A stretch of DNA of 63,312 nt, filler included, from Neolecta irregularis DAH-3 (Eukaryota), in assembly GCA_001929475.1 (NCBI GenBank). It is 5 parts of 5 records of this genome, joined end to end, with 100 filler letters (N's around TTAATTAATTAA, not from the genome) between each part and the next. Parts side by side here need not be neighbours in the genome. Positions count along the whole stretch, not along the records: positions 1 to 15,025 come from LXFE01004132.1; 4 more parts are not named here. One strand, written 5' to 3'. Below, in pieces: positions 1-25,916 of the stretch (the first letter of the stretch is position 1; the number at the start of each line of letters is the position of its first letter). Position numbers and translations under genes: made by a program. The notes beneath the pieces are model-generated. The model did no database searches and had not been told where the DNA came from. It saw only the letters and a program-made list of their open reading frames with translations.

Positions 1-1158
1 TGGACATCGGAGCAGCATTTGCTGCGAGCATCCTTCCCCAGAATGCAAGTGATCTTTGACCAGTCCTGCCAGACGTTGAGAAAAGCGTTCATCGTCGTTG
101 AAACTTTCCACCCTTTTATAACCACTTAACCCAAGCTCCTTCACCTCTTCGCCGTATTCCAAATCTAATTCAAAGAGTGTTTCAATGTGATCGCTTGTGA
201 AGGCGATGGGAACCACTAAGACATTCTTCTTGCCCGATTTCGCCAAGCCTCGAAGCATATCGATCGTTTGAGGCTCCATCCAAGAGGCAGGCCCTACTTT
301 GGACTGCCATGTCAACCGATACGGATTTTTGGTGCCAAGATCTTGCATAATAGATGATACGCTAGATGCCACCTCCATGACGTAGGTGTCCCCTTTCCGA
401 ACTTGTGACATGGGTAGCGAGTGTGCGGAGAAAAGAATGATGACTGGTTCTGGATCAGCGTACGTTTTCAATGAGTCTCGGATATGTTCGGCAAATGTCT
501 GTTCATGAATATTGTCGAAATGTGGAGAGCATACTTTCACAAGGCTCGGATGGTTGAACCATCTGTCAATTACACTCCATTTTATCCGTCCGTGTGGATC
601 AAGCTTCTTCGACCAATGATAAATATCATTTAAATTACTCCCAGTCGTAGAACATGTATATTGTGGGTACATCGTGACAGCAACAGCCCGTTCCACGCCG
701 TCTCGTAGCATCTGCTCCATAGTCTCGTTCGTAAGTGGACTTGCATATCTAAACATGATATAAGGCACATGAGGACCAGTTTCCGGTGTAGTCTTATCTA
801 GATACTTGCATATTGACTGAGCTTGGACTGTGGACCAATGTCGTATTGGGGAACCCCCGCCGATGGCAGAGTATGATGCTTGTATTTTGGGTGTTCGTCT
901 TCTGGCTATCCACTTTCCGATGGTTGATTGGAATGGGCCCAGTGGAATGATATCAGGGTCTAACAATCAGTATTCCCAGATCTTCAGAACTACCAGTGAA
1001 CAAACGAGTTAGGAAAGGTTGAACTTCACACAGGGTAGTAGGGCCGCCCATATTCATGAAACATATGGCCGAATTGTGAGAATATGCCAAGCTACGAATC
1101 TTACTGTAGGATTCTTCGACGCGGACGCGGTGACTGTAGCCATCGTTCTATGAAGCAT
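1..1158 (-). CDS. HEM15: Ferrochelatase (3' end runs off the window)
   Basis: Spliced translation MLHRTMATVTASASKNPT/AICFMNMGGP...FLTRLFT/DPDIIPLG...IGGGSPI...AHSLP...WQSKVGP...FTSDHIETLFELD, all ferrochelatase motifs; 3 introns visible. Confidence 0.95.
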
Positions 1159-1251
1159 TGTGGTGGAGATAGAAATGATGAGGCAATTTTAAATTTCTGA
1201 TCAAAAATAAAATCCTTCAGACAATCTCATTGATATCCACCACGTCAAGAA

Positions 1252-1784
1252 ATGTCTTTCGTAACACCACTAAAAATGATGGGTACTTTATGCCTTGGAG
1301 CTGTTTGCGTAATTTCTGCCGTTATTTTTCAATGTTCTCAAAGTTCAAGGGCTCGCTGATGACTGTTTCCCTCGCTTGTGTTCCGCTTCTTCTCTCATCC
1401 CAGTCTGACGGCGATGCTGCATCATCCTTCAAATTGCTCAAATTGAACTTGAAATCGTATCTGTATCCACTAGAGATTGTATCTATTACATCTCTGCTTG
1501 GCGCATTTGCCGCATCTTCGAGATCTCAAAGGCATCCGTATCTTATCTACTCGGCCATTGCTGGCTCCCTGATCTTTCCATATACTCGCTTTATCATGCC
1601 TTGTGTGCAACTTGAAGATCTCAACGCTGAAACTATCCAAAAAAGCCTTTCTAGATGGGGAACACTCAATTGGGGACGGTGCGCTTGAAATCCAATTTCG
1701 TCATATAAGCTAATCAGGTTCAGGGTTGCATTTGCAGGGATAGCATTTGGAATCGCTACCTTTGGTGGGTATGGAGACTTCTAG
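1252..1784 (+). CDS. Atg33/Scm4-like mitochondrial outer membrane protein
   Basis: 3 exons: MSFVTPLKMMGTLCLG...RHPYLIYS...GIATFGGYGDF*; RHPYL motif and C-terminal GxxGD are typical of the family. Confidence 0.7.
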
Positions 1785-1900
1785 TAAAACAACTTAAAAT
1801 ATATACCGTGTTTGAATATTCTTCTTTGAGCTGCAGACACCATGGGAACCCCAACTACACCTCTTCTGATCGGGAGTATGGAACCACCAGCACAGTATTA

Positions 1901-2786
1901 ATGAAGTATTACACAAATACGAGACAATACGCTGACCTGGAGTACGATTAAAGAAATATCGAGAATAAATCAGAGGCAGCTCGATTTACCCGATGGAGCG
2001 TATGTCTTTTTGCGTTGTGGCACCACCATTAATTCTACAGTTCTTGGCATGATCAATACAAGGACAGCGCTTATATTTACATTGGGGGATTGCCTTATGA
2101 TTTAACAGAAGGGGACGTCGTCTGCATATTCTCTCAGTATGGTATGCTTGTCTGCTCACCTGCTCATTTTCTAAGATACGGAGAGCCTCTTGATATCAAT
2201 CTCATTCGGGACAAGAATACTGGCAAAAGCAAAGGGTTTGCATTTCTCAAATACGAAGATCAGCGTTCGACAGTTCTTGCTGTCGATAACTTGAGTGGAA
2301 CTACAGTATGTCACTTGGTATCTACACTTGGCCTGACAAAAGGTCCTTGGGCGAACTTTGCGGGTGGACCATGTTTCTGAGTATCATCAACCTAAGAGGG
2401 AAGGAGAAAGCACCGATTTAGAAGATCCTAGAGCCGCTATGAATGTAGCACCAGAGGCTATGCTATCGAAGACGGATGTCGCCATCAGCAAGACTGATGA
2501 ACTTGATGAAGACGTCCTCGCTGAGGGACTGGATCCTGAGGATCCAATGCGAGGATACCTGATTGAGAAACGGCGCAAGGAACTTCGTTCTGAGAAAAGG
2601 GCTCGTAAAAAATGCGAGCGTATGTCTCGCAGTGAAAAACATGGCGATGAGTCTCGCGGTGAAAAACATGGCGATGAGTCTCGCAGTGAAAAACATGGCG
2701 ATGATAAACCAGAGCGGAAACGTAGTAAACGAGACAGTCGCAGCAGGAGCCCGCATCATCGTTCTCGTTCGCCTAGGAAAGTATGA
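1901..2786 (+). CDS. IST3: RES complex / U2 snRNP RRM protein Ist3/Snu17/RBMX2
   Basis: [25 protein letters not shown]...[23 protein letters not shown]...[10 protein letters not shown]-rich tail; 4 introns; first coding exon is only ATGAA. Confidence 0.95.
2625..2705 (+). repeat. 27-bp coding tandem repeat x3 (SRSEKHGDE) in IST3
   Basis: tctcgc(a/g)gtgaaaaacatggcgatga repeated three times. Confidence 0.9.
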
Positions 2787-3028
2787 CTAGGATGGTGTAC
2801 CAGGGTATCAGTCGAACGGAATATAACCCATGTAAAGCATTAACTAGAAATGTCTTGCTCCATAATTGTCCTCGTGAATTCGCCACACGTGTATTGTTCT
2901 GTGATACCTAACATGAACCGCGTTCGTCAGCTTAAATATCCAGTGGTCTCTCGTCCCGACAAATTCAACTTCCGCCCTCTCCTTTTCTTTCCTTCCCTAA
3001 ATCGCATAAGATTATCCCGCGGTCCACG

Positions 3029-4310
3029 ATGTCGTCTACTATGGTTGTTTGCCATCACTAGAGCACCATTGACGATTACAGAGTCGCAGAAAGAAAGCCA
3101 AGAAGACTGGCATTCAGTTTACGCTGATGATTACTGGTTGTTCGGGGACTGGAAAAACCACCTTTGTCAATACTCTTTGCGGCCGCCAAGTCCAGCCACA
3201 TCAAGAATGCGATGATCCTAAGAATGCTCATATCGAGGAGCAAATCAAGATCAAGCCTGTCACTGTGGGTATGAACAACCCTTGACCCTATTTTGACTGA
3301 AATCCTTAGAATTGGACGAAGAAGGTGTCCGAATTAGTTTGACAATTGTCGATACCCCAGGTTTCGGGGACAACGTCAACAGTGAGGCAAAGTGATTTGC
3401 AGTTTCCGGCTTTAATTGATGGTTAGTTTTGCCGCAATCGCTGGCTACCTTGAAAATCAATACGACGACATTCTTGCCGAAGAGTCGCGAATCAAGCGAA
3501 ATGCTCGGTTCAAAGACCATCGAGTACACGCTCTCTTGTACTTTGTCGTTTGCACAGGCCATGGGTATAATTAATTGCTTGTGCATAGCTGATTTTGAAG
3601 ATTGCGAGAACTTGACATTGAGCTCATGAGGCGACTTTCTCCACGAGTCAATGTTATTCCAGTTCTAGCAAAAGGAGACAGTCTTACCCCTGCTGAACTT
3701 GCAGAATGCAAAAGACTTATCATGGAAGACATTGATTATTATCAAATCGCGATCTACAACTTTCCATATGATGTTGAAGAGGATGATGAAGATACGATTG
3801 AAGAAAACGCTGAACTTCGAAGCCTTATGCCTTTTGCAATTGTTGGCAGCGAAGACATAATCGAGGTTGATGGTCGCCGAGTTCGAGCCAGAGTTTATCC
3901 TTGGGGTATTGTAGAGGGTACGGGAATGGTTCACATCGCAACGCTGATCTTTAGTCGAAAATCCTCGTCATTCCGATTTCTTGGCTCTTCGGTCGGCTCT
4001 TCTGCACTCTCATATTGCCGATCTAAAGGAAATTACTCATGATTTCCTGTACGAGAATTACCGTACAGAAAAGCTTTCCAAGGCTGTTGACACGGTTGAT
4101 GGATCGGAGACTGTTAATCCCGAAGAACTTGCTACTCAATCTGTTCGTCTCAAGGAAGAACAACTTCGACGCGAAGAGGAAAAGTTGAAGGAGATTGAAC
4201 TTAAAGTACAACGTGAAATTACTGAAAAACGACAAGAGCTCTTAGCTCGAGAAGAAAAGCTAAAGGAAATTGAAGCTCGAATTCAGCGTGAGCAATCACA
4301 TGATATCTAA
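3029..4310 (+). CDS. CDC11: Septin, Cdc11/Spn3/AspA group
   Basis: RRKKAKKTGIQFTLMITGCSGTGKTTFVNTLCG (P-loop), IVDTPGFGD, AKGD, RVYPWG, LYENYRTEKL, C-terminal coiled coil; 5 introns. Confidence 0.92.
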
Positions 4311-4521
4311 GTCATTTGATTCTGATTTCGATGGAGTGAGGAGTTTGTTGGACAAGAGGAGAGATTGGGAAGTCTTCCTTGCGTCATACTTCCATTCGGT
4401 GATAATTAATTGCAATTTCTATTATAGTGGGAGAAGATAAAGCTAGAGCCCAGAATACATTATGCGTGCAAGAATGCGCTGTCGTACTGGAGATCTGTGG
4501 TCTTCGCTGACAACCGAGATT

Positions 4522-5758
4522 TTAACTACCTGACTCATTTGTCCAGAGACCAAAAGGTCCGGGACAGCTTTTCCACAGTCTGATTGTTCCGTCCTCACTT
4601 GAAGTTGCATAAAGATTTCCATCCGGACTGAAACTTACACAATGCACGGCTCCATGGTGACCCTTGTAAATTTCTCAAGGTCAATGACTGCTTGTAGATC
4701 CAGACATACCTAATTCTTCTCCTGAAGGATAATCATACACTCTAACCCAGAGATCGCTGGCACCACCCGTAACAAATTTTGTATGAGAGGGATGGATGGA
4801 GATGCTGGAGACATCATATTCGACATTGATTTGCTTCTCGAGAGTGAAGCTATGTGTCAATTAGGAAGTAGGAGAAGGCGTACACGTCAGAGGATAAGAA
4901 ATAGACAGATTTTCCCGCAGTAACAGTTACACACTTTCCGTCTGCGCTTTGTTCCATCGATGTAATCATAACATTGGCGACAAATTCGTTGACGATGGTA
5001 TTGCTTCGAAGGTCGAACCAGCGAATCTTCTTGTCATCACCAGCCGATAGGATTAGATTTTCAGAGCGCCGATCCCACACGACAGATTTTATGACTCCTT
5101 CATGAGTCTGTAACTGACGGGGTGTACTTGTCTCTAGATCAAAGAGTCGAACTTTCTTTTCATGGCCGCCGGTGATTGCCTGGCAGGCATCTGGGGAAAA
5201 ATCCACACTTCTAACAATGTGCTCGTGAGGGAGAGATGTTTGCTCAGAACCAGTGTAAGTGTTCCAGACTTTACTGTTGGATCAGACAAATCGGGTTCTC
5301 GGTGATACGCGGTGAAATCAGCACTGCCGGTGATTGCTTTTCCCGCGTCTGTAGAAAGACGAGCGGACCATACTGCGCCTTTGTGTCCTAGGAAGGTGCC
5401 AATCCAGTCACCAGTTATTCCATTTCTAAGCATGGGATTGCCGTCTAAAAGTAAGAAGGAGGAACGGGCGACCCAAGACCCTTTGAGGCGGATATGAGAT
5501 AATACTCATCATCGACAATGGGGGAGAAATGGATGTACGTGACTGGGCGTTGGTGGCCTTTTCGAGTCAGTATTTAATTGGAAGCGGCTAATGCACCCGA
5601 ACATGTCTATTTGGGATCAGTTCACGGAAGCAAGGACATGCAGAACAGACCAAGGGCACGACCCTCGAAGATGCGGCCTGCTGCGGTTGTAATGGACGTG
5701 CCTGTTGCTGCTGATGCTGGAGATTTGGGTTCTGTTGTTGCGATGAATGCAAAAGCAT
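4522..5758 (-). CDS. STRAP/Unrip-like WD40 protein
   Basis: VVPL/TCS/GHQRPV...[26 protein letters not shown]...[10 protein letters not shown]; includes a 10-nt microexon at 5597-5606. Confidence 0.92.
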
Positions 5759-5872
5759 TGCAGGCGGTGCAGCAGCAATAGCAGAGAGAGTAGAGCAGCA
5801 GAGGCGTCTGGTGGTGAGAAATGACGCAACAACACTTTCTCACCACCAATTTTTTGGTTCCAGTCATCAGTA

Positions 5873-8521
5873 ATGACAAGGACACAAGGCATAGAAGACA
5901 CAGAAATACCGTCCTTTGAGCTTGCACGCGAATTGCGCGGCCATTCGCAGGATGTATGCGGCTCTGCTTCATATTTTATTGCTGGAACTCAACTGCCAGG
6001 TCAAGGCTGTTGCAGCTCCCACACCCGCCCTGCTGCTTTCTGCCTCCCGCGACGGTTCTATTCGCCAGTGGTCACTTGACAGTAATGGCGATACAGATAC
6101 AGATGGTGATGAGGCAGAGGTGTATTCTTCTAGCACCGCCTCCTTTGTCAATTGCATCGCCTGCATTTTGCCCTCATCCGACTTTCCTGGCGGTCTTGTT
6201 GTTGCAGGAGGCACAGACTGTGCTGTGAGCGTCTTTGCGCCTGGATCACACGAACCAATATATGTACTTGTCGGCCATTCACACAACGTCTGCAGTCTCG
6301 ACGTCGATACTGCTGGTGCAATTGTGTCTGGTTCCTGGGACAAGCACGTCTCGCTTAGAGTACTGCTGATCCTCCAGAACCGCCCGCATCTGGATCAATT
6401 GGCAATCTCATGCTATTCTGCAAGGACACACCCAGGCCGTATGGGCCGTCCTCATTTGGAACGACAGCAGCACAATCCTGACTGGTCCGCTCTCCTCCAT
6501 CTCATATCGTCTCACCCTCAGGCTCTGCGGACAAAACAATTCGTATGTGGAGCAATGCAGCCACAATCAAAACGTACGAGGGCCACACAGATTGCGTCAG
6601 AGCACTCTGTAAACTGGCGGACGACCGATTCGCAAGCTGTGGGAATGACAGGTAAAGCCGCTCACACTGCAAGATCTAAGCCTAGCGCTATTCGCATTTG
6701 GCATATTGATGGTTCTCAGCTCCGTCAACTGTACGGCCACACTTCATTCATTTACTCTCTTGCCCTTCTTCCCTCTGGCGAAATCGTTAGCAGTGGAGAA
6801 GACAGATCAGTACGCATATGGCGGAACCATGAGCTCATCCAAACTATAACAATCCCCGCAGTCAGTGTCTGGAGCGTTGCATGTTCGCCTTTGGGCGATA
6901 TAGTCTGTGGCGCCAGTGATGGGGTTGTGCGTGTCTTCACCCGTGATAGCACAAGGCGCGCCCCCATCCAGGTTCTGAAAGTATGAATCGCCCTTTCTAA
7001 ATTAATATTCTAGGCTTTCGAGGATACTGTCGCAGCCCAGGCCATTCCATCGTTTGGCTCATTTATAATCTCCTCTGACAACAAGCACGCAAGTGGGGGA
7101 TATCAACAAGGAGAACCTTCCAGGCTTGGAAGCACTTCAAAATCCTGGTATCTTCATAAAACCAATCTGAAGCCAATTCGATAGGCAATAAAGAAGCCCA
7201 AGTTATCATGATACGCAATGGCGAAACCGTGGAAGCATATCAGTGGACTGCTGGAAGCTGGCAAAAGATCGGAGAAGTTGTCGATGCCGTGGGATCAGGA
7301 CGAAAACAGATCTATGACGGCAAAGAATACGATTATGTTTTTGACGTGGATATACAGGAAGGTGCACCGCCCTTGAAACTTCCTTACAACGCCAACGAAA
7401 ATCCCTGGTCTGCCGCTAACCGTTTTCTCGAACAAAATGACCTTGACATGGGATTTCTTGAGCAAGTTGCAGATTTTGTCGTAAAGAATACAAAGGGTGT
7501 GAATCTGGGCGTCGCTGAAGATTTTAATAGTCAATACGGTCGTCACAAGCCATTTTTTCGCTTATCATACAGGTAGCCGATATAAACCTGGTCAAAAGGA
7601 TGAGGATCGACCGTCCGTTTTTCCGCAAAGGACCTATCTCTCTTTTAAACAAATCAACCTGGAGGGAATCAAGAAGAAAGTCCGAGATCTGAACAATACT
7701 GTATGCTAGAGCACTGGCGTTGCATTTAATGATCCAGGTTGGCACCGCATCACTTACATCAAAGGAACTGGAGCATCTCGACTCTATCTGTATTCTGCTT
7801 GAAAATTCGCAAGAAATTGACGATACTGGCATACAAGTCATTTTGAAAATTGCAACCTCGTGGCCGATTGCTTCACGCTTCCCTGGATTGGACCTCTTGA
7901 GAATTGTGGTCTTGTATCAGACCTCTATAGATTTATTAGGGATTATCCTTAGGCCAGACCTATATCACAAAGACCAAGGAGATACGAATCTGATGCTCGG
8001 GCTCCGCTCTTTAGTAAATTTCTTTAGTTCCAAGGATGGAAGAAATCTACTCGTTGATAGGATAGAAATGGTAATCCCTACTGCCAAACATTGATACTCA
8101 TGACCAGCTTTTGTCTCTAGTTTCTCTAGTTTCCTCACAAAACAAAAATGTGCGCCTAGCGCGGGCCACATCATATTTGAAGTAGGCTTCGTTGCGTTCC
8201 TCCTTCGTTTGACAAATAGTCTAGTGACTCTTATTCACGAATCCTCGAAGGAATATTTGCGGGAACAGATCGTGGATGTCGTTGAGAAGGTGCTCTTAAG
8301 TATGGGATGCTTATCTAATTTTTATATAGGCCAGTCGTTCGGAGAGTGACCCTGAGACTGTGTACCGCTTGCTTATAGCTCTTGGTACCGCTTTGTCGGT
8401 GCCTAAGCCAACTCGAGAAATGAAGCAGACCGCATTAAAGCTCGTTTTGCAATATCAGACATTATCGATGGAGAAAAGAATTACGAATGCGATTGAAGAT
8501 ATTCGTTTACTCATTGCATAA
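5873..8521 (+). CDS. DOA1: Doa1/Ufd3/Lub1 (PLAA): WD40 + PFU + PUL domains
   Basis: WD repeats, PFU motif YDYVFDVDIQEGAPPLKLPYN, PUL motif WP...RFPGLDLLR; about 12 introns, one with a GC donor (6344-6377). Confidence 0.95.
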
Positions 8522-8552
8522 TGTAGACAAGATAGAAAAGTTTAAATATTAT

Positions 8553-9169
8553 TCAAAAGTCTTGAACGCCGGTCTGACATTTGAGATTGTCCTCAAGATG
8601 GGCATCGCCTGGCGGGTCTTCTTGGAAATACGTTTCCTCTAAATCTCGCGTGATGAGATCATTATCGTCGTATTCAGAGTTATAGTCTACTTCATCATAG
8701 TCGAAGTCGCTCTAAAATATCAACAAAACACATGATACCCACTTTTACATCTAGGCCCATCACAAACAGATCCTTGAGCAGATCACCAAGTTCCGCGACA
8801 TTCTCGGGAGCAAATATATTCTCGGCATCATTCGCAAGAGATTCACTCCGCAAACTATTGTACTCTTTCTCATCCAGTTCCTAGTATTCGTAAGCCCAGC
8901 AGGCTTTTGAGCCGTACAGCCAAGATCCTGGAAGAAAATGCATGAGTATCATCCGATTCTTTGCCACGTTGCTCAGCGGCGATTTCATTTCTCACATTCT
9001 TGTTTAATAGCTGAGGATCCAACACAGAGCTATATTTTCCCTCAAGGTATTCCTTTTCAAATTTCTGCAAGTAAACAAAGCGCCGATTTGAAATCAGCAC
9101 ATGCCTCCTTTTGTTCGCAGGGACGCTTTTTAATGGCATTGGAAGATTAGATTTCATATGCGAAGACAT
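8553..9169 (-). CDS. CCDC97-like protein
   Basis: ISNRRFVYL...DPQL...FVMGLD/SDFDYDEVDYNSEYDD...RDLEETYF...TGVQDF*; 2 introns. Confidence 0.8.
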
Positions 9170-9852
9170 TTATTGTAATAATCAATTGTAGAGGGGTCCC
9201 AAAAACCAAATAATCAGCAAAAACCATGCTCCATATGTATTTGCTTAAATCTAGTAATAATATAATATATAGGCTTTTGTATACTACTTTTAATTACAAG
9301 TGTTATTGCGACCCTTCTTAGAATATACCACAATATCCAAGTCCTCAGACCCATTTTCCAGTTCTTTATAAATGTAAGTTACACAGGCTGAAATTTGGGG
9401 AGTTTTAGGTTAATTTTTAATTACTTTGCATCTCTTGCGAGTTTGAAAATATCAAGCCGAGCTCAAGACTCACTGTAGCCAGGAACCTCCAATTGTTTTA
9501 TTGTTTTTTATGAGCCTTTGGCTTGTAGAAAGTTAAGCTCTCTTCTGGGACTAGTGAATGGCTATCTGAGTTCGATTTAGAGCCATCCCTACAAGCCTCT
9601 TTCACCAGGGCTTTGTTTGCCCATCTCTCTACCAATATCCAGGATTGCTCTTCCAGGGTATCTTCATTACAGTTATAGAGCGTTGGAACCCGATAGTAGA
9701 ACAATATATTTTTGCATGAGAAGAAAAATAAATAACAATAAAGGGACGAGAATAAACAGTGGTAAAATGAGCCACTGTATAGATCAAAGATCAAAGAACA
9801 TACATTGTGCTGAAACAGAGAAAAGAAATGAAAGCAAAAAACCGAAGACAGT

Positions 9853-11756
9853 TTAAATACTCCCTTCATCACTACTAAGCTCCAACATCTCAAAATCGTC
9901 AACATCAGGACCACTGATATCGGAAAGAGTGTCAGATTCGGGGGCCGCAGCATTATCAGCTTTGGCAATAACGTCAACTAAAAGACCTTGTGGTTCAACA
10001 TGATGCTGATCAAGTTGCTCAACAGTCGGAAAAATAAGCTGTGACTCGGAAAGAGCTCCTAATTCGTTCGGATTTTGCGATACAGAAAGTGGTCTATCTA
10101 ATCAGAACTTGGAAACAATGTCGACTTACTGTATACTTTCCTTCTGCTCAGTTTGAGTGGCGGCAGTGAGTATAGTCAGCCCTTCAGTCTTTGAAATCGG
10201 TATTTCTGCTTTAAGTGAGAAGACGCCATGTTTTGGGCTGTTTGGCAGAACAACCATCGGACACAGGTGGATGCCCTTATCCTCGCATTTCTGACACTAT
10301 TCTGTCAGAAATATACCTCTTGGTAGGATTACAAGATCGAAATCGTCACATTTCAAACAATGGTAACGAGTTCCGATGATCGGACTAAATTTGTCAACAA
10401 TCTTGTTCAAAGTAAAATATACTCTTGAAGGCAATTATCACATCCAAAGCCGTCATGTTCCCCATCGTCATCATAACTTTTAATCGCTTCAAAATTAGGT
10501 CGAGGAAATGATGGACAACGAGGACTTCTGTATTTGACAAAAGTATGATGTGGTCCATGGATAGACCCTTGAGAATCGAAGCAGTTTTCGCACTAACTAT
10601 CAGTGGCGATTATTCAAAGGCGGATTGATACAAGATCAAAGTCGTGACAGGTGGCGCACAAGTAGCGGATACCTTTAATCGCTAAAATATAAGCAAACAT
10701 ATATATTTTAGCAAAACAAACCGCCTGAGCAATTATCACATCGAACAAAAGGGTGCAAAACTGGTGAATTCGCAACATGGCTAGGTTCGTTGAAAGCAGT
10801 GACTATTAAATTTGCGAGAGGGGTTTTAATCTTTATGAGTGGATGTTCATCTGGATGAGTTCCAAGCGCTTCGCAAGCTGAACAAAGATCCAAATCAGGA
10901 CATATAGAACATTTGTATCGAATGCCCTGAATAGGGGTATTTTTTTCGACACAATTTGGACCATCGCAGAGTACATGATGATGCGATACCTGTTCTCTAA
11001 TGGTAGACGGGGATTCTTGTTGCTCCTTTGTAGTCAATCCATCAATTTTGGCTGCAAGAGCAGAGACGGCCAGAGTCAAAATATCTGTTCGCTCGTTCAG
11101 CCTTTTTGGTTCAAACTGATTTAATTTCAAATCGATCTTCTTGATATCGGAAGCCAGCGAGGAGATTTTTTCAGAAATACCTGCAACATCCTGCATATTT
11201 GACTGGGCAACCACAGAAACATCAGGTGGTCTAGCCATCGCAGGACCAGCTTTTGCCATGGCACCTGCTTGGCTCGCCGTAGAAGATAAAGGCGCAGCAT
11301 GAGTAACCCCGGAAGCATCGACATAAAAGCGAGCCTCTAGGGGCCGCGCGGTAACGTTTACCTTTTTAAGCTGAAACTTGAACTTTGGTTTCTCGTTCTT
11401 CAAAATAGTGCGTCTTGTTATATCTTTCAAGTTCTTGATACTTCAGAGTAAGCCAAAAGGATGACGACAGCTGACCCAGACCCTTTTGGAGATATCGCTT
11501 TATAGTGATTCGCACGCTCTGCTCTTGTAGACTCTCGATATAACGTATACTGTCCATCATTCGGAATCCCCAAAGCCGTCATGACCTGTTTTTATCAACT
11601 CGTCGAGGGGGAAAACGGGGAAGGTACCTTGGCAATCAACGACGCCACATCCTGCGTGTTATCAAAACACGTCTTGTCAACTATTATCCTGCGAAACTTG
11701 AGGGGTTCAGTCTCAATCTTGAGCTCGACTTTAGCAGAAACAGCAGAAGCAGACAT
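9853..11756 (-). CDS. NBR1-like multi-ZZ zinc finger protein (autophagy receptor candidate)
   Basis: Three ZZ domains (CDGPNC...RYKCSICPDLDLC; CDNC...RYLCATCHDFDLC; CDNC...RYHCLKCDDFDLC), SQLIFPTV motif, C-terminal DDFEML. Confidence 0.75.
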
Positions 11757-11894
11757 ATGGGACTGGTGGCAGATGGGGTGGTGAAAGCGGTAGATAAGAC
11801 GCCGATCACGTCACCTGGTCTCATCTCCTATCTAACGAAACCTGAGGGAAGATAAGAAAGGAATTTAATACATATACACAGATATATGCAAAAA

Positions 11895-13300
11895 CTATGA
11901 TTTTTTATCTCCTGCGCCACCTGCTGTGATCGGGGGAGTGACAGTTTGAACGGCTGCTGGCGGATAATACACCGGAGTAGACTGCGGGCTGTAATAATAT
12001 GCTCCAGCGTTCTCAGTCGATTGACCTGCGTACCAATAATCACCGCCGTAATACATCGAATTCTCCATCATATCAGGTCCGCTCATCATTGGTGAATATC
12101 CCATATATGGCGAGACGGGTGAGTACGAGAATGACGGAACTTGGTTGTTGGTGTCGTAGACGTACGGGGGTGGTAGTGCATATGTATTCGGGTGAAAGGG
12201 CGCAGCATACACAGCTAAAGATTAGTAATAAAGAAGAAGAATAGCGTACCGGATCCCGGCAAGTGGCCCCAAGTCTTTTGTTTATGAAGAAAAGGTGGCG
12301 TAGCTGCACTGAGGACAGCCGGCGGAGCAACGCTAGGGTGATTTGCACCAAATTGAGCTATTTGAACGTTTCTCGTAGGACGAGGTTGATGAACTTGGAT
12401 TTGGCCGGCAGGGTTAGTCGCACTCACATCTGGACTTGATGGTTTCTTATAATGATGATGATGGTGATGGTTCGGGCGGGCATCGTCTTTGCGAGTAAAT
12501 TGATTTGGCTCATAAGAATTTTCAGAGGCAGGATAAACTTTCTTTATTGGTTGACCCGGTAGACAAATTTGTACGGGTAAATCTGCTCGAAGAGGTTTAT
12601 ACCTCGCAGGACGAACGTAATGCCGCCGGACATCGATTACAAGTGATTCAATTACCGTCACATTTGGAAGGTTTATCTGGGCGCAAACTGTATTATTTGC
12701 GGTTTTTGGTTTTGAAGGTGGCTAGAATCAGAAGAGAATTTATTGAAAATACCCTTGATGTAGGTTTCTGCCGGGTTTCCAGTGGATCGAACGCATCGTG
12801 CTTCCATCGTTCGTCAGAGGGATCCCTTTTATTAGCCAGGAAAATAAGATGAAGAAATACTTTGTTTGTTTACCACGTTTTCCACGGCCTTTAGTTGTTT
12901 CTCGAACGGGTTTCCGATTACGAGAGTCATGCATGAAGAAACTTCCAATGTACGGGACAAAAGTAGGATCACGAGCAGCTCGAGAAGTGTACTCTTGCCG
13001 ATTTTTCTTTAAAACATTTTCTTCGGAAAGGAGAGATAAATCTTCAAAATGTATATTTTCGACAGGAGTTGTATTTGTCGACATTCCATTCAACATTTCT
13101 TTTGTCTCTCTGCTCGAAGAAAACATTGCCGTTTCTCTAGAGGGGGTTTGTTTTGTTGGATCGGAAGGGATTTCACTCCAGTCCAACTGATTGCTTTCCA
13201 ATCGAGATTTCGGGATAAAATCCACGTTCGAATTTTCAGAGTCGCTTCCAAAGCCTTGTTCATCTTCGGAAGCGCTGTCTTGGAGAGGATGGTCGTCCAT
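11895..13300 (-). CDS. CASC3/Barentsz (Btz domain) exon-junction-complex-like protein
   Basis: DPTFVPYIGSFFMHDSR and ERWKHDAF Btz motifs; Pro/Tyr-rich C terminus; 3 introns. Confidence 0.75.
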
Positions 13301-13523
13301 ATATTAAAGATTCAATAGTGAGGAATAGACCAGGAAATGCAGTGGCAAATTTATGTGAACGAAAACACGTGAAAATCGCAGTTGTGTAGGCTAGTATACG
13401 TGCTCGTCACGTCAGCTATCTACATTCGTTCTGAGTATTCATTGCGTATCGTCTCCTTTGTATCATATGACTTTCCAAACGCATCATATCTTTTCCATAG
13501 GTAATGTCCATTATTCATATCAT

Positions 13524-14621
13524 TCATTCACTCTGCTCCAATGATATATCTTCCACGTCATTAAACCTTTTCCACTCTTCAGGAAAAGGAAACTTCTTTT
13601 TCGGTTTATAATGCCTCGTATCCAACGGCAGATCTTCAAACAAATCATCATGTTCCTACATTTTTTAAAACAAAGAAAAAGAAAAATCATACCTTTGCTT
13701 CTGCGATCAATTTATTTACGAGATCAGTTAGATATTTTTTATTTTGCAGGATAGTAGGAAATGCCTGACAGCTTAATTTTAATGTTTGATTTTGAGGGTT
13801 GAAGCGCGGGCCGGCTAATAAAGCCATTTTATGTTTTTCTTTTGGGGAGAGGACGAGATCGTCTATGGCTAGTTGTAGGACTACTTTTGAAGCAGCGGGG
13901 TGTGATTCACCGAAATAGGTTGTATAGCGGAACTGGAGGATTTGAGGATGTAAAGGGAGGGTGAATTGTTTTGCGTATTCTTTTGTTAGGAGATAGAATA
14001 AAGGGAAGTACGGGAGAGTTGAGGGAGAGAATAAGCTGCTTTCCTGTAGTAGTCTCTGATGAGTCTGTGGACGCTTAGCTGTGAATGTGCCATTGAATTG
14101 AGGGCGTCTTTTGTGGGGACAAAGTCTAGCGAAGGATCGAAGGGGGCGCCTCTCAAGGGCATTCCGTCGTGCTCTAGCTGGAGATTGCTGCCAGCTGCAA
14201 AATTGTCTGCGAGGCGCAGGTATTTTTCAAATGAGTAGTTTGGGTCCGGGGCTGCGTCCGAGTCTTCATCCGCGTCCGCATCAGCCTCTGACTCGTTCTC
14301 TGGCAAGGGGTCCTGAGGAGCGTCACGGCCAAACGAGTCTAGGCCCTCTTCGTCATTGTCGTCAGTGTCGATGTCTGAGCGTAGCTGCTGGAGCATGAGG
14401 GCGCGGAGTTTTGGTATTTTGTAGCGGTCGAGATCGAGGCTGATGTGCCTGCCGAGATGGCTGTGGTGGGAGATTGCATCGGCAAAGTCGTCAAAGGACT
14501 GCAGAGGAACCGTGTCTGGGAGGGGATCGAGGACAGAAGAAAGGGCGGGCGGGGGCGTTTGCGGGGGCCGGGCAGAGAAGCGGCGGCAGCGAATGCACCG
14601 GGAGAGCATCGGGCGCGGCAT
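13524..14621 (-). CDS. RSM24: Mitochondrial ribosomal protein Rsm24/mS35
   Basis: RDYYRKAAYSLPQL...LQFRYTTYFGESHPAASKVVL...LAGPRFNP...DLPLDTRH...FPEEW; Arg-rich presequence; 2 introns. Confidence 0.9.
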
Positions 14622-14777
14622 TGGAGGGCGGATTCGGTCTCCAGGCTTCCGCTAGACTATCCGTAGCCACCCTATCGCCCTAACCTTGCTTGTCCGCGCT
14701 GCGCCGTTTGCTCCAACCCACTCGTCTCTGGTGTTCACTCGCTCTCACTGATACTCGCCCTCACCACCTGTTCTATC

Positions 14778-14876
14778 TCACTCGGCCACTTCCATTACTC
14801 GGGACTTCCATCACTCGGCACTTCTATCACTCGGCCACTTCCATCACTCGGGACTTCTATCACTCGGCCACTTTCA
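14778..14876. repeat. 16-17 bp tandem repeat, about 6 copies
   Basis: tcactcgg(cc/g/c)acttc(c/t)a units upstream of RSM24, just before a 10-N gap. Confidence 0.85.
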
Positions 14877-14910
14877 CACTTCCATCTCACCCGCGTTCGA
14901 NNNNNNNNNN

Positions 14911-15025
<115 letters not shown>

Positions 15026-15125
15026 NNNNNNNNNNNNNNNNNNNNNNNNNNNNNNNNNNNNNNNNNNNNTTAATTAATTAANNNNNNNNNNNNNNNNNNN
15101 NNNNNNNNNNNNNNNNNNNNNNNNN
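15026..15125. other. Artificial contig linker N-TTAATTAATTAA-N
   Basis: Six-frame stop linker between N runs; the same linker occurs near 19924, 25710 and 52141. Confidence 0.97.
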
Positions 15126-19879: not shown

Positions 19880-19979
19880 NNNNNNNNNNNNNNNNNNNNN
19901 NNNNNNNNNNNNNNNNNNNNNNNTTAATTAATTAANNNNNNNNNNNNNNNNNNNNNNNNNNNNNNNNNNNNNNNNNNNN

Positions 19980-25383: not shown

Positions 25384-25916
25384 AGTCTGGTTGGTGGGAA
25401 AAGCCCGGTTGATGGCGACATGCGCAAAAACAGGCCTTATCACCTGATATTAGTTAGTAACCCACGACCGTTCAGAGCGCCAACATATGACCACTCTCTG
25501 CCTCGAGACTTAACTTGCTATTCAATATCAACAATTTTGTGCACCAATTCCTGCTCTAATTCCCTTACTTTACCCCTGTAGTTCATCAGTATTCTCTCTC
25601 AAAAAGGATTTGCCCATACTTGAAATCCTCGACTTCCTTCCAACATTCCAATGGCCTGTGATCATNNNNNNNNNNNNNNNNNNNNNNNNNNNNNNNNNNN
25701 NNNNNNNNNTTAATTAATTAANNNNNNNNNNNNNNNNNNNNNNNNNNNNNNNNNNNNNNNNNNNNATGTGGACTAGATATTTATTTTCAAGTATTAGTTC
25801 AGTAAACCCACTAGGTCTTTATACAAAAGGATTTATTGTGCGGTTATCCAAAGCTGCACTAACGCCTCACTGTTGTTCGTGTCATCACAACTGATTAGTT
25901 GACAATATCTATTCGT

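Follow-up and report, generated by a model that had tools for sequence, protein, structure and literature searches.

The first intron of the Neolecta irregularis ferrochelatase gene is probably spliced GT-CG

The first ferrochelatase intron of Neolecta irregularis is probably the 35-nt stretch at 1104-1070 on the minus strand, spliced GT..CG, as far as can be judged from the sequence of the locus and of its relatives (positions count along the window, that is, the whole 63,312-nt stretch of DNA that was analysed). Three or four splices are possible at this intron, and the question is which of them occurs. We propose that 1104-1070 would be an ordinary ultra-short U2-type intron, with a C at position -2 as its sole departure, and that the second splicing step would be performed at the CG as the simplest route to a conserved enzyme. 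Splicing would then join a short mitochondrial-type leader ending in KNPT to AICFMNMGGP, so that the N-terminal strand of the ferrochelatase would regain its invariant Thr. We infer that the CG is used, because the branch lies at the usual distance, the terminal G is kept and no AG follows for about 40 nt downstream of the CTCAC branch. Counting against this reading are the rarity of non-AG 3' sites, the presence of two in-frame GT-AG options and the annotation by the depositors.

By its sequence matches, the minus strand of region 1-1158 carries the 5' part of a single ferrochelatase (HEM15) gene of Neolecta irregularis. The ORF at 1..966 (322 aa, minus strand) matched PF00762 with 286.7 bits (E 2.5e-85; family cut-off 27), covering profile positions 28-316 of 317, and a 45-aa frame at 953..1090, which includes AICFMNMGGP, matched profile positions 2-28. 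The top database relative, 'Ferrochelatase, mitochondrial, partial [Neolecta irregularis DAH-3]' (hereafter P0001), was 96% identical. The 4% shortfall corresponds to intron 3 read through in frame: this intron has no stop, with the result that a plain ORF scan runs on through it and gains 12 spurious residues, which P0001 lacks. The next matches were at most 60% identical, and thus no second ferrochelatase copy was found among the 120 matches listed. The rest of the gene is intact, with 56-60% identity to orthologues. The features of the gene are as follows (X1 and X2 are two sequencing runs, described below).

1105..1158, minus strand: coding part of exon 1, with ATG at 1158 and a second in-frame ATG at 1143.
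1070..1104, minus strand: predicted intron 1, 35 nt, GT..CG, gtaagattcgtagcttggcatattctcacaattcg; its removal gives the highest profile score.
1099..1104, minus strand: donor GTAAGA, log-odds 1.08, 88th percentile of the 6,517 GT sites in the window.
1076..1080, minus strand: branch-like CTCAC, with its A at 1077, 7 nt to the proposed 3' end.
994..1069, minus strand: exon 2, 76 nt, first residues AICFMNMGGP, PF00762 positions 2-28; P0001 agrees from AICFMNMGGP on.
960..993, minus strand: intron 2, 34 nt, GT-AG, with CTGAT 7 nt from its end; P0001 reads ...RLFT and then DPDIIPLG.
535..959, minus strand: exon 3, with the PF00762 match and X2 contigs over 535-960.
499..534, minus strand: intron 3, 36 nt, GT-AG, in frame and free of stops; skipped by an X2 contig.
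1..498, minus strand: exon 4, extending past the start of the window (and of the contig); covered by the ORF, the Pfam match and contigs of the sequencing runs.

The exon 1 product is a short basic N-terminus that carries no acidic residues and ends in ...KNPT. An in-frame stop lies upstream of ATG 1158, the stop-to-stop frame 1057..1188 opening at 1188.

The first-pass annotation had pointed to the GT..CG stretch at 1104..1070, flanked by ...AAT CCT ACA before and GCC ATA TGT TTC ATG AAT ATG GGC GGC after, and both the stretch and its flanks can be read directly in the sequence, as can the placement of the A of CTCAC 7 nt before the 3' end. The same mRNA would be produced from 1103..1069, written as TA..GG, which is an alternative notation of the same intron. 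The distance of 7 nt from the branch A to the 3' end is also found in HEM15 introns 2 and 3 and in an RNA-supported intron at 1906-1942, and the length of 35 nt falls within the local peak of 31-42 nt. Thus, a GT donor fitting the local consensus, a branch motif and a length typical of U2-type introns are all present in 1104..1070, whereas the terminal AG of this type is absent; the stretch ends in CG, and the same CG is found in the X1 contig. AG occurs in it only at 1101-1100, 5 nt from the donor, and at 1093-1092, 13 nt from it. The assertion in the first-pass annotation that there is no usable AG holds for the donor at 1104 but fails for the GT donors at 1134 and 1126; it overlooked two in-frame 35-nt GT-AG introns that have these same two AGs as acceptors.

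1100..1134, minus strand: rival intron C, 35 nt, GT-AG, donor GTCACC, with the AG within GTAAG as acceptor.
1092..1126, minus strand: rival intron B, GT-AG, 35 nt, donor GTCCGC.

Retention of intron 1 was said to cause a frameshift to a stop, and indeed the frame from ATG 1158 stops at 1054 (34-aa ORF at 1054..1158). In the unspliced RNA, the stop of this 34-codon frame overlaps the ATG of MNMGGP as ATGA at 1057-1054, an arrangement that could permit termination-reinitiation. Two further routes, skipping of exon 2 and use of the next downstream AG (about 1027), both meet stops and were rejected.

U12-type introns have varied 3' dinucleotides and tolerate non-AG ends, and their consensus comprises an [AG]TATCCTT donor and a TCCTTAAC branch. 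The non-AG end of the Neolecta intron recalls this tolerance, but its GTAAGA donor and CTCAC branch are unlike the U12 consensus (donor GTAAGATT, branch region TTCTCACA), and a U12-type reading was rejected.

The protein sequence at the join of exons 1 and 2 argues for the GT..CG splice. Among the 120 homologous matches listed, 96 extend far enough to show position -6 relative to N[ML]GGP, and 95 of these 96 carry Thr there, the exception being P0076 with Thr at -7. The homologue consensus before N[ML]GGP is K-P-[KGP]-T-[AG]-[IV], which the K-x-P-T of exon 1 fits; since exon 1 ends in KNPT, the GT..CG join reproduces the consensus. By contrast, Ser at -6, within the S-H-N-S produced by both GT-AG rivals, was found in 0/96 homologues, and the motif of the N-terminal strand, T-[AG]-[IV]-x-x-x-N-[ML]-G-G-P, is satisfied solely by the GT..CG join. 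Five candidate products were scored against a profile built from 94 homologue segments, with P0001 left out. The GT..CG product obtained 100.4 bits, about 8 bits above both GT-AG rivals (92.4 for intron B, 1126-1092, and 92.3 for intron C, 1134-1100). A variant with an additional Ser, in which the 3' site lies 3 nt upstream, scored 95.9, and the unspliced product from ATG 1057 was the lowest at 84.7. With the 45-aa exon 2 sequence as a query, no fragment of the spliced-form protein was found among proteins of 24-79 aa, and P0001 alone matched among proteins of 80-2000 aa.

We also analyzed 80 ferrochelatase loci from metagenome contigs, in 78 of which the motif was present. Thr occupies position -6 in all 78 motif-bearing loci; the T-[AG] pair is contiguous in 71 and is read across an intron in 7. 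In these seven fungal loci (L047, L050, L053, L054, L057, L073 and L077), representing 6 distinct sequences in 4 groups, the intron is canonical (GT-AG), 52-67 nt long and in phase 1, interrupting the same Ala codon behind its first base (...CCA ACA G / CN ATT...). Its position is 1 nt from the Neolecta GT..CG boundary, and identical to it if the Neolecta intron is written as TA..GG. Thus, an intron between Thr and Ala is not peculiar to the GT-CG reading. In both settings the intron follows the PT codons and comes before the A-I/V-hydrophobic strand that precedes NMGGP, but the Neolecta intron is 35 nt long, in phase 0 when read as GT..CG, and ends in non-AG, whereas those of the seven loci are 52-67 nt long, GT-AG, in phase 1 and located after an apparent micro-exon. 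Close relatives of Neolecta were not found in the metagenomes by a single-protein scan, and an alignment scan returned relatives of 45-56% identity only.

As a separate observation on the seven loci, their P-T codons are located on an apparent 8-nt micro-exon ([CT]CC[AC]ACAG) with ...AG before and GT after it (L047, 2318-2325; L053, 2299-2306; L057, 2307-2314; L073, 1292-1299).

The window was scanned for GT-AG stretches of 31-42 nt that have an open frame on either side and a [CT]TNA[CT] word 5-10 nt before their end. This constrained scan yielded 98 candidates, where control dinucleotides predict about 41; the survey is partly ab initio, and the control counts put its noise at roughly 40%. 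The candidates fell into 77 loci, of which 61 hold one candidate each. The donor bases beyond GT played no role in selection, and among the 61 single-candidate loci they were GTA in 34, GTG in 14, GTT in 11 and GTC in 2. At 12 of the 61, both flanking frames match one Pfam family (donors: 11 GTA, 1 GTG), and in the nine non-repeat loci among these 12 the profile coordinates adjoin; Pfam support for the locus at 36941-36976 (GTTGGT) is weak and confined to one side. The two GTC loci are at 46190-46221 (plus strand, GTCAGG) and 23527-23490 (minus strand, GTCAGC), and no Pfam family matched on either flank of them. Together with five RNA-supported introns, the 12 Pfam-flanked loci give 17 validated local introns, of which 15 have GTA, 2 have GTG and none has GTC. 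Compared with rivals B and C, only the GT..CG intron has a strict [CT]TNA[CT] branch at 5-10 nt; the branch statistics of the scan are not independent, because this word was imposed by the selection. Discovery of introns ab initio by ORF-bridging and by unconstrained EM was swamped by noise, the excess appearing in the constrained scan alone. The first-pass proposal that KNPT is joined to AICFMNMGGP is thus favoured by conservation, by the profile, by local splice norms and by the nearby intron of other fungi, while use of the CG itself is a prediction from these.

The contigs of the two sequencing runs, neither of which is registered as RNA, bear on the locus in different ways. One X1 contig (record 8, word depth 495) matches the window letter for letter over 854-2000. 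Its depth is close to the sum of those of two nearby allelic bubbles (240 and 224, at 793-883), so that the CG of intron 1 seems to be present in both haplotypes of the X1 sample. Given this contig, the CG is no obvious assembly slip, and the first-pass reading of CG rather than AG at this site stands; X1 may be the sample behind the assembly itself. The contigs of X2, a run labelled 'DNA?', omit 499-534, 1309-1349, 1679-1723 and 1906-1942, and pass directly from 1999 to 2041. Because they skip introns in this way, X2 behaves as a transcript assembly. It supports five introns, namely HEM15 intron 3 and four plus-strand introns, the fourth of which, 2000-2040, is marked by the loose end of an X2 contig. 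The donors of the five are GTATGC, GTAATT, GTGCGC, GTATTA and GTATGT (4 GTA, 1 GTG), with 7-10 nt after the branch A. At intron 1, the X2 contigs end at 960 and none lies over 961-1219, which is a hole in the cover and not evidence.

Of the other explanations, the GenBank model fares best, although we consider it unlikely. According to this model, the true intron is 1134-1100, and the GTAAGA and CTCAC signals as well as the KNPT codons are relics or chance occurrences. The protein would read M(LHRTM)AT followed by IRSLAYSHNSAICFMNMGGP; P0001 itself begins with MAT and continues IRSLAYSHNS..., and thus uses 1134..1100 and ATG 1143. The two models have in common introns 2 and 3 and the protein from AICFMNMGGP on, and differ in intron 1, in the initiation at ATG 1143, in the first 12 residues and in the Ser that replaces the invariant Thr. 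Intron C is canonical, in frame and of the typical 35-nt length, its leader is likewise basic and free of acidic residues, and it was the choice of the depositors. However, gene callers and most read aligners consider canonical junctions only, so the GenBank model does not constitute independent evidence. Moreover, the GTCACC donor scores -4.12, at the 12th percentile of the GT sites in the window, a branch-like motif is absent, and a GTC donor occurs in 0/17 validated local introns. Intron C also places Ser where Thr is found in 95/96 homologues and 78/78 loci, and its profile score is 8 bits lower. A further point in favour of the GenBank model is that, according to the genome paper (PMC5309816), DNA and RNA from fruiting bodies were sequenced and 99.4% of genes have RNAseq support.

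It is quite improbable that a former AG intron has been crippled, with the RNA remaining mostly unspliced and the enzyme being made from ATG 1057, by reinitiation, or through a minor cryptic splice. The ATGA overlap at 1057-1054 and the non-AG 3' end speak for such a scenario. Against it, the product from ATG 1057 would be devoid of the leader and would begin five residues into the conserved strand, without the invariant Thr, and has the lowest profile score (84.7 bits). Furthermore, the remainder of the gene is intact at 56-60% identity and is the only copy seen among the matches listed.

The two remaining alternatives are both very improbable. Intron B would yield ...TVTA followed by LAYSHNSAICFMNMGGP; it has canonical ends, is in frame and 35 nt long, and carries a loose branch-like GTAAG 9 nt from its end. 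Yet its GTCCGC donor scores -3.11 (23rd percentile), and its product has Ser at the position of the invariant Thr and 92.4 bits against 100.4. The other alternative keeps the donor at 1104 and moves the 3' site 3 nt upstream (intron 1104-1073, GT..AT), adding a Ser between Thr and Ala. Homologue P0076 also has an extra residue there, the profile score of 95.9 bits is the second highest, and GT-AT introns are about as frequent as GT-CG introns in two surveys (PMC11590231, PMC4528330). However, this site is only 4 nt after the branch A, outside the local range of 5-10 nt; the terminal G would be lost, and the score is 4.5 bits below that of the CG join.

Returning to the GT..CG splice, its mechanism may be considered in two ways. 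In fission yeast, a 3' AG is required even before the first splicing step, and in the second-step spliceosome the A at -2 contacts the branch adenosine; the CG site is therefore possibly inefficient. A wider reading, which we regard as rather doubtful, is that in the ultra-short introns of Neolecta the choice of 3' site depends chiefly on a fixed spacing of about 7 nt from the branch A, so that non-AG (CG) use would be constitutive, here in an essential gene. On this reading, the intron may derive by a one-base shift from the phase-1 GT-AG intron of other fungi at the same codon, and additional non-AG introns would be hidden in this genome by gene models forced to GT-AG. A window scan for further non-AG introns returned 155 rows indistinguishable from noise, and we therefore make no claim on other non-AG introns.

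GT-CG introns are already documented as a rare class, of which the Neolecta case is likely a further instance. RNA-based annotation of Ganoderma lingzhi gave 19 GT-CG introns among about 92,000 (~0.02%; PMC11590231). The Drosophila melanogaster FlyBase set (PMC4528330) contains 8 GT-CG introns, all 8 with RNA-seq support and all 8 adjoining a similar alternative (canonical) splice. The Neolecta intron resembles the class in having a U2-type donor and a 3' end that departs from AG at -2 only. Unlike the Drosophila cases, which adjoin an alternative splice, the Neolecta CG, as predicted from DNA, would be alone in yielding the conserved protein, and this in an essential single-copy gene and a 35-nt intron. 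A literature search found nothing on Neolecta splice sites, and the words 'intron' and 'splice' do not occur in the main text of PMC5309816.

If the GT..CG splice is real, the public ferrochelatase model is wrong at its start, and the N-terminus, probably including the targeting leader, would be corrected. A gene of haem synthesis that is essential and single-copy would then contain a GT-CG intron spliced constitutively, with no nearby canonical site for wobble, and this intron would provide a useful natural test case for the choice of 3' splice sites in very short introns. It would also illustrate that annotation restricted to GT-AG can swap a conserved protein segment for a cryptic one. If a GT-AG rival is true instead, the locus would be a case of cryptic-splice rescue following loss of the AG.

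Several minor observations concern the surroundings of the gene. The HEM15 ATG at 1158 (minus strand) and the ATG at 1252 of a divergent plus-strand gene are separated by 93 nt, and the X2 contig of the latter gene begins at 1220; the promoter common to HEM15 and the divergent gene, and both 5' UTRs, must be very short. Within 67-331, there are 6 differences from the window in X1 and 4 in X2, 2 of them common to both, and paired 60-letter contigs are present at 793-883 in both X1 and X2, suggesting that the sampled material contained two haplotypes or more. Finally, the long gaps at 15026-15125, 19880-19979, 25666-25765 and 52097-52196 each consist of N44, TTAATTAATTAA and N44, an all-frame stop linker, so the window is a chain of separate contigs, the first piece being 1-15025; shorter N10 runs are located at 14901-14910 and 49088-49097.
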